Below, piece after piece: positions 1 to 5,217 of a stretch of 5,217 bases of DNA (its first letter is position 1; every line of letters starts with the position of its first letter). A program made the position numbers and the translations under genes. The notes beneath the pieces are model-generated. The model ran no database searches and was not told the origin of the DNA. It saw nothing but the letters and a program-made list of their open reading frames with translations. Source of the DNA: a virus (taxonomy: Duplodnaviria > Heunggongvirae > Uroviricota > Caudoviricetes); the IMG/VR virus record IMGVR_UViG_2645727673_000004. One strand, given 5' to 3'.

Positions 1-642
1 CGCCGTCAGTCGCCCGTCCGGTGTAAGGGAAAATGCAGGAGGATTACCGCCGCTGGTAATGGTGGGAGCCGTCAGATATTTCAGGAACACGTCGTTCATG
101 AATATCTGATCACCCTGACCAACAAACATCGGCTTTGTGTTGCCATTCGCAGGATTAATCATCGCAATCCTGTCTGCCGCCAGCAGCACCTGACTCTGCA
201 TTCCTGCTGGCGTATTCTCAATACCGGCACCGATACCCGCAATATAAAGGCGTCCGTCCTGCATCTGCTGCAGTTTCACGGCCCACATGCTGTTCAGGTT
301 ATTATTTGTATCAACCTGAACCTTCTGTATCTGCTGGATCGCTGCACTCTGGTCTTCCAGTTTCTTATTGACGGTCTGTGTGATTTCATTGCTGACATCC
401 GTAATGGATGTCCTGATTTCAGCCAGGTCAGGCGCAAGCTGACCGTTATCAATCTGCGTCCACAGCTCCTGAGCCAGATGGGTTTTCCCTATCTCGCCTT
501 TGAAAAAATCCAGATAGCCGGATGCGTCATCACTCGGCTGACCAACAGCCTCCACGAATGCCGATTTGCCAACGGTGTTCACACTGCGAACGTAAAAATA
601 ATAATTATGGCCCGGTTTGATATTGATACTGGCGGCTAACAT
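1..642 (-). CDS. Lambda J-like tail-tip / host-specificity protein, distal fragment; 5'-truncated and running off the window at its 3' side
   Basis: Minus-strand frame is open from the window edge to ATG at 640-642 (214 codons). Translation is [34 protein letters not shown]...[98 protein letters not shown], which I recognise as the conserved distal part of lambdoid J-family proteins (Fn3-like YYFYVRSVN strand). An in-frame TAA sits two codons upstream (646-648) and there is no SD before the ATG, so the ATG is probably fortuitous. Absent from the ORF track because its stop is outside the window. Confidence 0.6.
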
Positions 643-660
643 CAATTAAGGAGGTTCAAC

Positions 661-783
661 ATGTTTCATTCCACAAATCATCAGGCTGTAATTATGGCTG
701 CATCAGCTTGTGCCACAGACCTTTTCCGCTTCACTTTGAGCCTGATTCATTTCTACCTGACCGGCTCGCCTCTATCTTTTTAA
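661..783 (+). CDS. Hypothetical small protein (40 aa) preceded by a consensus Shine-Dalgarno
   Basis: ATG at 661 lies 6 nt after AAGGAGG (648-654). ORF is MFHSTNHQAVIMAASACATDLFRFTLSLIHFYLTGSPLSF with stop TAA at 781-783. It is below the ORF-track length cutoff. No homolog recognised; coding status uncertain. Confidence 0.3.
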   Translation: MFHSTNHQAVIMAASACATDLFRFTLSLIHFYLTGSPLSF

Positions 784-963
784 TCCCCGCTTTATCCAAA
801 TTGCATTGCCAGAATGCCGACAACAGACTGACATTCAAATCCTGACTACCTCCAATAGGCTGAGCATCCACCTATATAGTTTTAATTTTCATCAATCCAT
901 TTAACTATCGTTTAATTGTTGTCACATAGGATTCTGCCGTTTTTAACAATGCAGGATAATAAG

Positions 964-1257
964 ATGAAAAAAATGTTGTTTTCTGCCGCTCTGGCAATGC
1001 TTATTACAGGATGTGCTCAACAGACGTTTACTGTTGGAAACAAACCGACAGCAGTAACACCAAAGGAAACCATCACCCATCATTTCTTCGTTTCGGGAAT
1101 TGGACAGGAGAAAACTGTTGATGCAGCCAAAATTTGTGGCGGCGCAGAAAATGTTGTTAAAACAGAAACCCAGCAAACATTCGTAAATGGATTTCTCGGT
1201 TTTATTACTTTAGGCATTTATACTCCACTGGAAGCGCGTGTGTATTGCTCACAATAA
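964..1257 (+). CDS. bor: Bor outer-membrane lipoprotein (lambda bor family, serum-resistance lysogenic-conversion protein)
   Basis: Translation MKKMLFSAALAMLITGCAQQTFTVGNKPTAVTPKETITHHFFVSGIGQEKTVDAAKICGGAENVVKTETQQTFVNGFLGFITLGIYTPLEARVYCSQ (97 aa) matches lambda Bor nearly residue for residue as I recall it. Lipobox is LITGC. It is convergent with Rz, as in lambda. The ORF-track start at 916 adds 16 non-homologous residues; ATG 964 chosen. Confidence 0.9.
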   Translation: MKKMLFSAALAMLITGCAQQTFTVGNKPTAVTPKETITHHFFVSGIGQEKTVDAAKICGGAENVVKTETQQTFVNGFLGFITLGIYTPLEARVYCSQ

Positions 1258-1267
1258 TTGCATGAGT

Positions 1268-1285
1268 TGCCCATCGATATGGGCA
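1268..1285. terminator. Hairpin between the convergent bor and Rz stops; possible weak terminator
   Basis: TGCCCAT-CGAT-ATGGGCA, a perfect 7-bp stem, lies between the bor stop (1257) and the Rz stop (1289-1291). There is no strong U-tract on either side, so function is uncertain. Confidence 0.3.
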
Positions 1286-1288
1286 GCT

Positions 1289-1750
1289 CTATCTGCACTG
1301 CTCATTAATATACTTCTGGGTTCCTTCCAGTTGTTTTTGCATTGTGATCAGCCTCTCTCTGAGGGTGAAATAATCCCGTTCAGCGGTGTCTGCCAGTCGG
1401 GGGCTGGTTGCATTATCCACGCCGGAGGCGGTGGTGGCTTCACGCACTGACTGACAGACTGCTTTGATGTGCAACCGACGACGACCAGCGGCAACATCAG
1501 CGCGCAGAGTTTCATTTTCAGCTTTCGCATTGGCTAATTCTCTCGAGTACTTTGCATCGAGTGCAGCAACATCACGCTGACGCTGCTGCATGTCAGCGAT
1601 AGTGGCGATCGCCTGCTTCAGCTCACTGACTTTTTTATCACGCTGTTCTTTGTAGGCGATGGCGTTATCACGGTAATGATTGACCGCCCACGACAGGCAG
1701 ACGATGATGCAGATAACCAAAGCATAAATAATCGCGGCGACTCTGCTCAC
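1289..1750 (-). CDS. Rz: Rz i-spanin (inner-membrane spanin subunit)
   Basis: Translation [39 protein letters not shown]...[62 protein letters not shown] is near-identical to lambda Rz. I place the start at GTG 1748-1750, which overlaps the R stop (GTGA) and has GGGGGA 7 nt upstream; this gives 153 aa as in lambda. The ORF-track start at 1765 is a TTG with no SD. Confidence 0.85.
1348..1530 (-). CDS. Rz1: Rz1 o-spanin (outer-membrane lipoprotein), fully embedded in Rz in the +1 frame
   Basis: 60-aa [63 protein letters not shown] has lipobox LVVVGC and a proline-rich stretch, and is near-identical to lambda Rz1. It lies entirely inside Rz. Confidence 0.85.
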
Positions 1751-2280
1751 TGCTCTATCCCCCAACAGGCTAATGCGCTTTCCTGGTCACGACGAATAAC
1801 CTGTCCATAGCAGTTATTTGAACGTATGCGGCAATCGCGCCCACCATCTTTTATCCACCAGCGAATCGCCTCGCATGCGCCCTTACGATCACCGGCATTC
1901 AGCCGCTTATAAAACGTCGACGGGAAACACTTACCGGGGCCAATGTTATAGGGACAGAATGACGCTATACCCGCTTTTTGTGGTTCGGTCAGTAGTACTT
2001 TAATATTGCGCTCCACCCATGCCAGCGCCTTATCACGCTCAATGGCGTTGACCTGGTCGCATTTTTCCTTCGACAGTTTCATACCGGGAAAAACGGGTTT
2101 TCCATCCACCATCGTGGCACCCCGACAGATGGTCCAGATGCCGGACCCATCGCGGTATGCCGTTGTGTGGTTACCTTCTTTTTCATCCAGAAACTGGTCG
2201 AGAATATCAGGCGCGGGCGCACCGACGGCAATCAGTGCCAGAACGGCAGCCGACAGGCCGTATCTGATTTTTGCGTTCAT
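1747..2280 (-). CDS. R: Endolysin, glycoside hydrolase family 24 (T4-lysozyme-like) with N-terminal SAR/signal-anchor segment
   Basis: 177-aa ORF with ATG start. N-terminal weakly hydrophobic Gly/Ala-rich segment [18 protein letters not shown] is followed by the catalytic E-x8-D-x5-T pattern ([16 protein letters not shown]). It matches the endolysins of Stx/lambdoid phages that I recall, and its stop overlaps the Rz start. Confidence 0.9.
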
Positions 2281-2343
2281 GGATATTTATCAGGATTTAT
2301 CGGTTTCTGCCCACGGACAGGTTTATCTGTTCCGGTCAGTGAC

Positions 2344-2694
2344 TTAAGGTTGTGATTCCGGAGGAGTCTTCAGAGAACCAGTAATTCTTCCCGGTAGCTT
2401 TCCTTTGTAGGTTATCCATACATTCTGCGCCTCTAAAATTACGGGGCGCTTTTCCGGCGACTGCTCATCCCCTTCACATAACCCGGCAGCAACATCCAGG
2501 AAGACCTGTCTGATACTCATTCTGGCTGCTGCCTCATAAAACTCCAGCGCGGCACCTTCAACACGGTCCAGCGAGATGTCCAGGTCAAAAATTTCACCGT
2601 CAAAGCGTTTTTTGTCCCGTAACGCTAAAGTTACCGTAACTTTATTCTCAAAATTGCGGATCCCTTTCACAATCAGTTCATAGTTTTGAGTCAT
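2344..2694 (-). CDS. DUF1327-family protein (YdfR-like) located between holin and endolysin
   Basis: 116-aa ORF MTQNYELIVKGIRNFENKVTVTLALRDKKRFDGEIFDLDISLDRVEGAALEFYEAAARMSIRQVFLDVAAG... resembles E. coli Qin-prophage YdfR, which lies between essQ and rrrQ (from memory). ATG at 2694 has GGGGAGAG upstream and sits 4 nt after the holin stop. Confidence 0.7.
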   Translation of the reverse strand: MTQNYELIVKGIRNFENKVTVTLALRDKKRFDGEIFDLDISLDRVEGAALEFYEAAARMSIRQVFLDVAAGLCEGDEQSPEKRPVILEAQNVWITYKGKLPGRITGSLKTPPESQP

Positions 2695-2698
2695 TGAA

Positions 2699-2914
2699 TT
2701 ACTCTCCCCGTGCCGCCTTACGACGGTCCTCTCTGATTTTGAAATACAGGTTAGTCAGATATGTCAGCAGCCCAAACAGCAGACTCCCCAGCACGCCTAT
2801 TGCCGCCCACTGAGACGGGGAAACCCTGTCCAGCAACTGCAGGAACCAGTAGCCCGTTCCCACCGCTGACGTGGTGTATGACACACCTGTTGTGATTTTT
2901 TCCATCTGGTCCAT
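2699..2914 (-). CDS. S: Class II holin / pinholin of the phage 21 S family, with dual-start motif (antiholin from Met1, holin from Met4)
   Basis: Translation [71 protein letters not shown] (71 aa) closely matches S21 as I recall it. Two in-frame ATGs at 2912-2914 and 2903-2905 give the classic dual start, with GGGAGA upstream. The ORF-track N-terminal extension to 3019 begins at GTG and contains a terminator, so it is rejected. Confidence 0.85.
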
Positions 2915-2946
2915 ACCCCGTCTCCCGTTATCCGGAAGCTGACAAC

Positions 2947-2978
2947 AATAAAAAAGCCACCAGTTAACTACTGATGGC
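2947..2978 (-). terminator. Rho-independent terminator on the late strand, immediately upstream of the holin
   Basis: Minus-strand RNA GCCAUCAG-UAGUUAA-CUGGUGGC forms an 8-bp stem with one G-U pair, followed by UUUUUUAUUG. Confidence 0.5.
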
Positions 2979-3221
2979 TCTGATAACTCATGCAAGCGTC
3001 TCAGACGATCCACTGACACTACCGGTGAGTTTAACGATACCTTCCATTTGACTGGCTCACTTTTTATGATGATGCCGGTGTATTTATCTCCAGCACCAGA
3101 CTTTCTATCTCAACGCCATACGTTGCATTTTTGGTAATATCCGTCAGCGTCAGTGCATTTAGTCCCACTGCCAGACCGTCTTTTATGGTCTGGAATGCCG
3201 GGCCAGTACGATGACGTAGTA

Positions 3222-3410
3222 TCACTCCGGCTCAGTTGCACCACTGACCACCACATCACCTTCTGCTGCAATCGCCTGCATCAGGGTATAAGGGGTTATG
3301 GCCACCGGACTACCAAACGGCTGCCAGCCCTCTTTCAGTTTATGTGTCAGCTTTTCCGCAAGATCTGACGGCGGCGCCGCCCTGACAACATCATAGTGTT
3401 TAAATGCCAT
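3222..3410 (-). CDS. Small DUF1737-like protein (62 aa)
   Basis: ORF MAFKHYDVVRAAPPSDLAEKLTHKLKEGWQPFGSPVAITPYTLMQAIAAEGDVVVSGATEPE carries the EGWQP-G motif that I associate with DUF1737 small proteins. ATG 3408-3410 is preceded by GGTGGAAAG; an alternative ATG at 3425 (MVERT...) has no SD. Confidence 0.55.
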   Translation of the reverse strand: MAFKHYDVVRAAPPSDLAEKLTHKLKEGWQPFGSPVAITPYTLMQAIAAEGDVVVSGATEPE

Positions 3411-3670
3411 GGTTCTTTCCACCATCTGAAAAATAATTCTTTAAAATACCAGACATGTAACACAGAAAAAACACAAAACCATACCTTAAATAGAAACCTG
3501 ATCATCAAGCAGATATGCATGGATAAACTACAAGACGAGATATAAACCACCCTGCATTTAAATAAACAATAAACAACATCAGAAAAATAATTCTGCTCTA
3601 TGGTTTATATTCAAAAATATCATTTATACTTTTCAGAACATCACCAGCAAGGCATAAACAAGGAAGCTAA

Positions 3671-4006
3671 ATGAAGTGGATTGTAATTGATACAGTTATC
3701 CAGCCATCATGCGGAATATCTTTTTCAGTCATATGGAGTAAAGTAAAATTAATAATCTGGTATCAATCGGATGCTTTCTTACCTCCTGAAAGTATATTTA
3801 CACTGACTCACACAGGTATCATGCTCAATAACAAAGTGCTACCTGTAACCATTTACAACGTAGTACCATTCAATAAAACATTCTGGAATTTAATCAAAAA
3901 CAGCCAGGAATGCCCTACAAATACAGATAACGTATTGAATGAATGCTTTAATAACCGTTGCATTCTGCAAATATGTCCTTATGGACTAAAACAACAAAGT
4001 CCATAA
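3671..4006 (+). CDS. Hypothetical protein, AT-rich orphan ORF (111 aa) opposite to the late operon
   Basis: ATG at 3671 is preceded by AAGGAAG (3660-3666). A 111-codon open frame in strongly AT-rich sequence is unlikely by chance because stop codons are AT-rich. Protein is [111 protein letters not shown]; no family recognised. Confidence 0.45.
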
Positions 4007-4027
4007 GGAGTTTACTCACATCTGACA

Positions 4028-4062
4028 AAATCAATATAAACAGCCCCTCCGGAGAGGGGCTG
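4028..4062 (-). terminator. Rho-independent terminator on the late strand (3' end of repeat unit R1)
   Basis: Perfect 9-bp GC-rich stem CAGCCCCUC-(4-nt loop)-GAGGGGCUG at 4041-4062, followed on the minus strand by UUUAUAUUGAUUUUGUC. There is no U-tract on the plus side. Confidence 0.6.
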
Positions 4063-4276
4063 GAGAGTGGCGCTATGTGCCATTGCATGGTGCCGGGTGC
4101 CTCCCGGTGAATTCAGTACCAGCACCTGAATCCGCGATTATCCCATATACCTACTCGCTGATTACCCCTCCGCACAGGGGGATTCACCATGCGAAATTTT
4201 TTAACAAACTTCCCGCCGGCCAGACAATAATCGCCAGCCTGAATTATGAGCAACGTGGCATTTTACGGGAAAACTG
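4041..4276. repeat. Repeat unit R1 of a diverged ~240-bp direct repeat (paralog of 4505-4746)
   Basis: Aligns with 4505-4746 along its whole length with several indels, roughly three-quarters identical by eye. Shared blocks include the 20-mer AGCCCCTCCGGAGAGGGGCT, GCATGGTGCC-GG-GCCTCCCGGT-AATTCAG, GGGGGATTCACCATGCG and TTTTTAACAAA...CCAGACAAT. Confidence 0.75.
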
Positions 4277-4283
4277 TTTTCTG

Positions 4284-4310
4284 CAGTAAAAAGGCCCGCC
4301 GGAGCGAGCC
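4284..4310 (-). terminator. Imperfect GC-hairpin terminator on the late strand, upstream boundary of R1
   Basis: GGCCCGC-CGGA-GCGAGCC at 4293-4310 has a 7-bp stem with one mismatch and the same CGGA loop as the repeat hairpins, followed on the minus strand by UUUUUAC. Confidence 0.4.
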
Positions 4311-4496
4311 TGGAAGGATAGCGGTCATGTGATGCCGGTTTCCCGGTAACTCAGCATCGGTATCTGAGTCAACGTTTTCTCTACTGGGTCATTTCCGATA
4401 CGTTCCGCCTTCCGGCAGACTTTCATCACGTCAGAAAATATAGCACCCTGAGTAACAGGACAGTACTCAGAATTCAGGAAACTGTGACACATCCTG

Positions 4497-4524
4497 CACA
4501 GAAAAGCCCCTCCGGAGAGGGGCT
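4497..4524 (-). terminator. Rho-independent terminator on the late strand (3' end of repeat unit R2)
   Basis: Perfect 8-bp stem AGCCCCUC-(4-nt loop)-GAGGGGCU at 4505-4524, followed on the minus strand by UUUUCUGUGC. Confidence 0.55.
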
Positions 4525-4746
4525 GAAGTATAGCCTAATTTCTGTCTGTCGCATGGTGCCAGGGGCCTCCCGGTAAATTCAGCCTGTCTACTGAATTTGC
4601 ATGTTCTCTGGATCATACACTTTGCCAGATGCCCCGCCGCTGAGGGGGATTCACCATGCGATGTAATTTTTAACAAATTCTCCGGCAGCCAGACAATCAT
4701 CAAGCTGTGGAATTGTGAGGTATTTAAAAATTTCAACGGGTAACTG
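4505..4746. repeat. Repeat unit R2 (paralog of 4041-4276)
   Basis: See R1. Same block order and orientation, and the same palindromic 20-mer at its left end. Confidence 0.75.
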
Positions 4747-4890
4747 ATACCCTGCTAATCGCCTGATGCTTTCTTTTTCAGCAACGGGAAAGCAACAACC
4801 ACACACCCGCCACCAAAACACCATCAGACAGCACCGACATTATCCGGCTGCTGAAGTCCACCATCACCACCAGAAACAACAGGAGTGCAA

Positions 4891-4939
4891 CCACAGCTGC
4901 TTAGAAGGCAATTGCTCTGCCCGGCTGAGCTAACAACGC
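4891..4939 (-). pseudogene. Degenerate tRNA-Arg(UCU)-like fragment (5' half only: acceptor arm, D-arm, anticodon arm)
   Basis: Minus strand reads GCGTTGT-TAGCTCAGCCGGGCAGAGC-A-ATTGC-CTTCTAA-GCAGC, with the D-arm and anticodon loop (U33, anticodon UCU) arranged like argU-type tRNA-Arg. No T-arm (no GTTCGAATC) or acceptor 3' strand follows, so it is a remnant. Confidence 0.3.
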
Positions 4940-5039
4940 TGAATACCGATAATGGACCGCCATCGGGGACCCGCCCCCGCACCAACAACCCTGTTATCGT
5001 GTCGTCTGCTCTTCCTGATAAGCTAATGGCGGTTTGTGA

Positions 5040-5115
5040 TGGTGGCCCTTGCTGGATTTGAACCAGCGACCTGGCGATTATGAGTCGCTCGCTCTCACCA
5101 CTGAGCTAAAGGGCC
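5040..5115 (-). tRNA. tRNA with CAU anticodon, most similar to tRNA-Ile2 (ileX/ileZ-like, lysidine type); may be annotated tRNA-Met
   Basis: Minus strand GGCCCTTTAGCTCAGTGGTGAGAGCGAGCGACTCATAATCGCCAGGTCGCTGGTTCAAATCCAGCAAGGGCCACCA is 76 nt and folds as a canonical cloverleaf: 7-bp acceptor stem, GCTC/GAGC D-stem, anticodon loop CUCAUAA, T-arm GCTGG-TTCAAAT-CCAGC, encoded CCA. It differs at only a handful of positions from E. coli ileX as I recall it. Confidence 0.9.
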
Positions 5116-5150
5116 GGGAGTAGAATAATAACGGTCCGTAATTAATTCCG

Positions 5151-5178
5151 CAATAAAAAACCCGCTCGGCGGCGGGTT
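5151..5178 (-). terminator. Rho-independent terminator on the late strand upstream of the tRNA (tR'-like)
   Basis: Minus-strand RNA AACCCGC-CGCCGA-GCGGGUU forms a 7-bp stem followed by UUUUAUUG. Its position upstream of the ileZ-like tRNA matches the tR' position in Stx-type phages. Confidence 0.55.
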
Positions 5179-5217
5179 GTAGAAACTCTTCTAACGCCAG
5201 GCATAAAAAGCCCATTA

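Follow-up and report, generated by a model that had tools for sequence, protein, structure and literature searches.

The 5,217-nt stretch of DNA analyzed here (the window) reads on its minus strand as the late region of a lambdoid prophage, based on the open reading frame (ORF) list, on Pfam, ARAGORN and Rfam searches and on the RefSeq annotation of identical DNA. The following features can be recognized:

1-642, minus strand: J′, a 3′ remnant of the tail-tip/host-specificity gene J and a probable pseudogene (translation, 100% DNA identity, Pfam)
637-638: deletion junction, a TA dinucleotide common to both parents (three-way alignment)
639-963: leftover of the intergenic DNA between bor/iss and an HNH endonuclease gene (100% identical to M217, ON470607 and ON470612)
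661-783, plus strand: small 40-codon ORF (ORF list; hypothetical protein in ON470612.1)
964-1257, plus strand: iss/bor, intact, encoding a 97-aa outer-membrane lipoprotein (Pfam Lambda_Bor, PF06291, E = 3.7e-30; identical to WP_000738421.1)
1289-1750, minus strand: Rz (i-spanin), intact (Pfam Phage_lysis, E = 9e-50; DNA identical to M217)
1348-1530, minus strand: Rz1 (o-spanin), intact, nested in Rz in the +1 frame (Pfam Rz1, E = 3e-20)
1747-2280, minus strand: phage lysozyme (endolysin, 177 aa), intact (Pfam Phage_lysozyme, E = 1.5e-23; RefSeq WP_000992097.1)
2344-2694, minus strand: YdfR/DUF1327 protein, between holin and endolysin (Pfam DUF1327, E = 5e-42; RefSeq annotation)
2699-2914, minus strand: class II holin (P21 S type, 71 aa), intact (Pfam Phage_holin_2_1, E = 9e-33; RefSeq WP_000372595.1)
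3671-4006, plus strand: IraM-like gene, 111 aa (RefSeq 'anti-adapter protein IraM')
4032-4220 and 4496-4689, minus strand: two copies of the STnc100 sRNA (Rfam)
5040-5115, minus strand: Q-proximal tRNA (ARAGORN, RefSeq)

The initial annotation had proposed that the prophage keeps a lysis cassette together with bor, and both are present as intact genes. The class II holin, the endolysin and the nested Rz/Rz1 pair follow the canonical order of an SRRz/Rz1 cassette, all four with full-length Pfam matches, and the DNA is identical to that of the intact M217 prophage over positions 637-5196. Base for base, the holin, YdfR, lysozyme, Rz, Rz1 and Iss genes are the same as in relatives that have the complete module. 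The iss/bor product is a typical member of the Bor/Iss lipoproteins: the family profile is matched from position 1 to 75 of 75, a signal peptide and a lipobox (MKKMLFSAALAMLITG/C, LITG/C) are present in a protein of ~97 aa, and the identical RefSeq protein is named 'increased serum survival lipoprotein Iss'.

Several further elements lie between the holin gene and the right end of the window. The two STnc100 copies are arranged in tandem ~466 bp apart, with the Q-proximal tRNA on one side and the IraM-like gene on the other, and score 132 and 138 bits (the Rfam gathering score is 47). Each copy is terminated by a GC-rich hairpin, GCCCCTCCGGAGAGGGGC, and repeat families D1-D4 of our repeat scan of the window correspond to these copies. 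The tRNA is called tRNA-Met (anticodon CAT) by ARAGORN and tRNA-Ile by RefSeq for the identical gene; it is presumably a lysidine-modified Ile2-type tRNA. Lambdoid and Stx phages commonly encode tRNAs of the Ile2 type downstream of Q. The IraM-like gene, on the strand expressed in the lysogen, is an IraM paralogue carried by the prophage. Its product has a precomputed PF11183 (PmrD) match in the contig data and returned no family at E ≤ 0.1 in our Pfam scan.

At the left end of the window, the minus-strand frame of J′ is open from position 642 to the window edge (214 codons), and the gene continues past that edge. Mapping of residues onto a 1,159-aa homologue indicates that J′ keeps residues 774-1159, and the window holds 212 of the ~386 retained codons. 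The C-terminal tail-tip fibre region that identifies the gpJ/TipJ family (Phage_Tail_Tip, then Ig_GpJ_C) is retained, with Phage_Tail_Tip (PF09327) matched at E = 4.1e-28 over residues 101-212 of the window fragment. The length of ~1,130-1,160 aa and the N-terminal FNIII-A_GpJ, Phage-tail_3 and Ig_J domains of a complete gpJ are missing, and the match to Ig_J_second is truncated, covering profile positions 62-104 of 105. Because residues 774-1159 alone remain and the frame starts in mid-domain, J′ is a gene fragment and not a functional member of the family.

The abrupt start of the J-like frame at 640-642 with a stop two codons upstream, noted in the initial annotation, can be read directly from the minus strand, which runs TAA (648-646), TTG (645-643) and ATG (642-640). 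The ATG of bor/iss is at position 964, so the separation between J′ and bor, earlier given as about 320 bp, measures 321 bp. Matches from a megablast search of 5,426 complete Escherichia coli genomes break sharply at this point. In 26 complete genomes, full-length gpJ genes match window positions 1-638 at 100% over their 3′ third (BLAST), and hundreds of complete E. coli genomes match positions 637-1300 and 637-5217 at 100%. When compared with the late region of intact HK97-type prophages at the potB site, positions 637-5217 are 99.98-100% identical, a match that covers the Q-proximal tRNA, holin, YdfR, lysozyme, Rz/Rz1 and iss/bor; for M217 the lone difference is base 5197.

The J-side and bor-side matches overlap by 2 bp (TA, positions 637-638). 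In a three-way alignment that sets the window against both sides (J and bor) of DETEC-P169, M217 and 23AR1183, the exact breakpoint is 636/637-638/639, with J-derived DNA ending at 636-638 and bor-side DNA starting at 637-639. The joint reads ...CTGGCGGC-TA-TCCAG in the J parent, ...CTCGAA-TA-ACATCAATT in the bor-side parent and ...CTGGCGGC-TA-ACATCAATT in the window, and the 30 nt to either side are unrelated between the parents. Both breakpoints could thus be mapped against intact relatives, as the initial annotation had suggested, and the microhomology amounts to merely 2 bp, which is within chance expectation. The alignment and the repeat scan reveal no IS element, no att-like site or repeat and no extended homology at the joint, and no repeat family touches positions 600-680; an IS-mediated or site-specific event is ruled out on these grounds. 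Since IS elements and long homology are both absent, the joint probably arose by illegitimate (homology-independent) recombination. The junction is deterministic and does not have the character of a statistical signal.

The two flanks of the junction lie in one and the same intact prophage, where they are collinear and co-oriented, in DETEC-P169 (NZ_CP116166.1), 23AR1183 (NZ_CP195377.1) and M217 (NZ_AP019189.1), all of which carry an HK97-type prophage at the potB site. The spacing of the flanks, which equals the deleted length, is 17,093 bp in DETEC-P169 and M217 and 17,094 bp in 23AR1183. In the locus extracted from DETEC-P169, where both flanks are on one strand, the J flank stops at 20638 and the bor flank begins at 37730. 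This relative matches the J flank at 100% and the right flank at 99.45% (16 scattered SNPs), and M217 matches them at 95% and 100%, respectively. To the left of the equivalent of position 637, M217 has a spacer of ~200 bp followed by genes for an HNH endonuclease, a P27-family small terminase (TerS), the large terminase (TerL) and the portal, and beyond these an HK97 protease, capsid, connector, tail genes and a 1,159-aa J.

The interval that is absent from the window comprises 19 complete genes plus J codons 1-772, according to the DETEC-P169 annotation. Its packaging and head genes encode the HNH endonuclease, TerS, TerL, portal, prohead protease, major capsid protein and head-tail connector and closure proteins; its tail genes encode the tail tube, chaperones, tape measure, M, L, K and I. 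In HK97-type phages cos lies between the HNH and TerS genes, and cos would therefore have been deleted as well. With collinear flanks and the loss of the packaging and virion assembly genes, the locus has the structure of a prophage rendered cryptic by internal deletion. The opposite polarity, in which the window is ancestral and the 17 kb were inserted, is ruled out because J is cut in mid-domain here and is full length in thousands of genomes. The earlier proposal of an internal deletion of packaging and morphogenesis genes is therefore borne out by the position of the flanks, which are co-oriented in a single prophage at a distance of 17,093 bp, and by the annotation of the interval between them. 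What has to be revised is the nature of the missing module, which is HK97-like (P27-family TerS, HNH, HK97 protease, capsid) and not lambda Nu1/A-like.

The J allele of the window matches DETEC-P169 and its late region matches M217. No single intact relative with both flanks at 100% was found, and none of four more carriers of the 100% J allele that were checked (three Rac-site prophages and one HK97-type prophage with YfbU replacing bor) matched both flanks. The parent prophage was probably a mosaic of known variants, as judged from these alignments. The identical (100%) 638-bp 3′ segment of J also occurs in at least three prophage backbones: (i) a Rac-site P22-capsid type, (ii) a potB-site HK97 type with bor and (iii) an HK97 type with YfbU instead of bor. 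This distribution is a clear case of modular exchange of the receptor-binding end of J. We also note that the intact relatives may themselves be decaying: the HK97 prohead protease of M217 is annotated as frameshifted (28144-28742 of the extracted locus), and in DETEC-P169 Rz1 is annotated and Rz is not (38441-38623 of the extracted locus), with SNPs at the equivalents of window positions 1343, 1581 and 1601.

Is J′ a gene in its own right? The initial annotation had recognized that a complete stand-alone gene with homologues of the same length would argue against a deletion. Some features could be taken to favor a domesticated J′, i.e. a functional, truncated receptor-binding or tail-tip protein made from a new ATG: the frame is open for at least 214 codons and starts with an in-frame ATG, the C-terminal Phage_Tail_Tip region is kept, and two other strains retain C-terminal fragments of J beside bor. 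However, the frame begins in the middle of the Ig-like domain Ig_J_second and full-length homologues have 1,159 aa, so this objection to the deletion fails. The first two codons, ATG TTA, are wholly or partly bor-side DNA; the ATG itself (642-640) derives from the bor side and is in frame by chance. No Shine-Dalgarno (SD) sequence precedes it, the DNA at that position being CCTCCTTAATTG. Analogous fragments are pseudogenes in RefSeq and all have different breakpoints, and a recent deletion within a gene whose intact form is 100% identical fully accounts for the open frame, the length of which reflects the recency of the deletion. Predicted J′ proteins starting at ATG or TTG are absent by exact sequence from a collection of 15 billion proteins (four starts tried), none of which has such a length and start, an absence that counts for little by itself because the NCBI pipeline labels fragments of this kind as pseudogenes and assigns them no protein. 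The sole predicted form present in this collection is a 368-aa version with a GTG start, and it was rejected as a carrier of the junction because its three contigs hold a frameshifted Rac-site J, or contig-end or internally disrupted J fragments. A functional J′ is thus extremely unlikely. From the mid-domain start, the fortuitous ATG and the lack of an SD sequence, J′ is most reasonably viewed as an untranslated dead remnant, i.e. a pseudogene.

Two further alternatives concern the origin of the joined segments. The junction is private to the source strain. None of the megablast matches among the 5,426 complete E. coli genomes spans the junction region (positions 400-900), the 28-mer that crosses the joint has no exact match in GTDB representative genomes, JGI metagenomes or IMG/VR, and megablast returned no spanning match in INPHARED phages or PLSDB plasmids. 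A look-up of contigs based on Iss yielded only intact lambda-type or HK97-type prophages and was uninformative, as Iss occurs in >27,000 blocks of the collection. Being absent from every collection searched, the junction has no independent confirmation, and this uniqueness would be expected of a sequencing or assembly chimera in which a J fragment and a bor/lysis region from different places or prophages were joined artificially. J genes and bor/lysis cassettes are moreover multi-copy in E. coli, with a median of 2-3 places per genome, and assemblies often break or misjoin there. Graph assemblers, however, misjoin through shared k-mers, and parents with 2 bp in common offer no k-mer path; the joint lies in unique-looking sequence on both sides, away from any repeat boundary. 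The order and orientation of the flanks are exactly those expected of a simple deletion within one prophage, and finished genomes contain scars that are just as clean, with 3-bp microhomology. We consider a chimera unlikely. Rearrangement between prophages, with J′ from the Rac site (trkG/ompN-sit) joined to the bor side of the potB site by a large chromosomal deletion or rearrangement, is suggested by the 100% J allele, which resides mostly in Rac-site prophages (14EC029, VTB97432v, N51 and MEI4O1-23), and by genomes such as M217, where the right flank is 100% identical and the potB-site J just 95%. Yet the same J allele is present in potB-site prophages with this iss/lysis module (DETEC-P169 and 23AR1183), so that no second prophage is needed, and since the two prophages are co-oriented, such a join would remove ~250 kb of chromosome between the sites. 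On the K-12 map the interval between the Rac and potB sites holds essential genes. This makes an inter-prophage event very unlikely.

We therefore consider it highly probable that the window carries the scar of one internal deletion of 17,093 bp in a potB-site HK97-type lambdoid E. coli prophage, generated by illegitimate recombination. One end of the deletion would lie 327 bp upstream of bor/iss, ~200 bp before the HNH endonuclease gene is reached, and the other at J codon 773; all head, tail and DNA-packaging genes would have been removed and the last third of J joined to the DNA upstream of bor/iss. The remaining prophage would be able neither to package DNA nor to build particles, and would retain within the window an intact holin, YdfR, endolysin and Rz/Rz1 along with the lysogen-expressed iss/bor. 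Upon induction, any J′ transcript would be no more than the distal end of the late transcript antiterminated by Q, as judged from lambda pR′. In practical terms, J′ should be annotated in this strain as a pseudogene and the prophage as defective, a copy that would be particle-incompetent but in which the lysis cassette is complete and iss/bor, a serum-resistance gene, persists. The deletion is an ordinary step of prophage decay and a previously uncatalogued instance of it. It adds another clean, base-resolved example of decay of an E. coli prophage by illegitimate deletion in which lysis genes and genes beneficial to the lysogen are kept; its value is local, and it opens no new question.

The bor-upstream segment at 639-963 is followed leftward in the intact relatives by ~200 further bp and then by the HNH gene, and it presumably contains the bor/iss promoter. 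An Rfam scan of 600-963 found nothing, and a promoter and terminator scan of 560-1320 remained at chance level. The 40-codon ORF in this segment (product MFHSTNHQAVIMAASACATDLFRFTLSLIHFYLTGSPLSF) lies on the same strand as bor and 180 bp upstream of it. It is a candidate gene: it has a near-perfect SD sequence, AAGGAGG, at 648-654 with a 6-nt spacer and is listed as a hypothetical protein in ON470612.1, is unannotated in RefSeq and has no Pfam match. As the joint lies 10 bp upstream of the SD sequence, a native promoter located further upstream would have been lost. The deletion has placed a sigma-70-like pair from inside J′, antisense to it (578-605, plus strand; TTCACA, 16-nt spacer, AATAAT; 10/12 matches), ~43 nt upstream of this SD sequence, and such a pair is within chance expectation (1 found versus 1.9 expected).

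The closest known counterparts of the window are the intact potB-site HK97-type prophages of DETEC-P169, 23AR1183 and M217, together with the partial phage records ON470607 and ON470612. These relatives share its late region (Q, tRNA, IraM-like gene, holin, YdfR, lysozyme, Rz/Rz1 and iss) at 99.5-100% identity as well as its gene order and orientation, and DETEC-P169 and 23AR1183 also have the same J allele at 100%; what sets the intact prophages apart is the 17,093-bp block of packaging, head and tail genes, which is absent from the window. Related scars are seen in AF44 (NZ_OZ547155.1) and EC147566 (NZ_CP139360.1), where, as in the window, a truncated 3′ end of J lies a few hundred bp from iss/bor and is followed by an intact lysis cassette. 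AF44 has undergone two clean deletions in the same prophage family that left a 698-bp tape-measure fragment between J′ and bor; its joints have ATA microhomology (J/tape-measure, extracted locus 6615-6685) and AAT microhomology (tape-measure/bor-upstream, 7310-7380). In EC147566, the bor region beside J′ is of the lambda type (Nu1/DUF3950) and includes ~295 bp of unrelated filler. None of these breakpoints coincides with that of the window. The scars in AF44 and EC147566 are independent of the event in the window and are evidence of recurrent deletion of this kind in the prophage family.

It might further be asked whether loss of the morphogenesis block is selected or driven by a hotspot instead of being random decay, because three unrelated strains have independently joined a 3′ fragment of J to DNA upstream of iss/bor, and two of the J breakpoints (AF44 and the window, at J codons 764 and 773) are only 25 bp apart. 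We regard this as decidedly unlikely. If true, it would point to a fragile site in J, or to selection for a module of J C-terminus, lom, tail fibre, iss and lysis cassette with particle production disabled.

The best-known parallel is provided by DLP12 of E. coli K-12, which also keeps borD beside truncated packaging and tail-fibre gene fragments. In this lambdoid prophage most reactivation and particle functions have been lost and a functional S-R-Rz/Rz1 module persists, and domestication of this lysis module has been proposed (PMC7918800). Like the window, DLP12 is a lambdoid remnant with a retained lysis module, but the prophage, the integration site and the breakpoints are different. Whereas DLP12 is old and fixed in K-12, the scar described here is private to one strain, and intact relatives still match its flanks at 100%.
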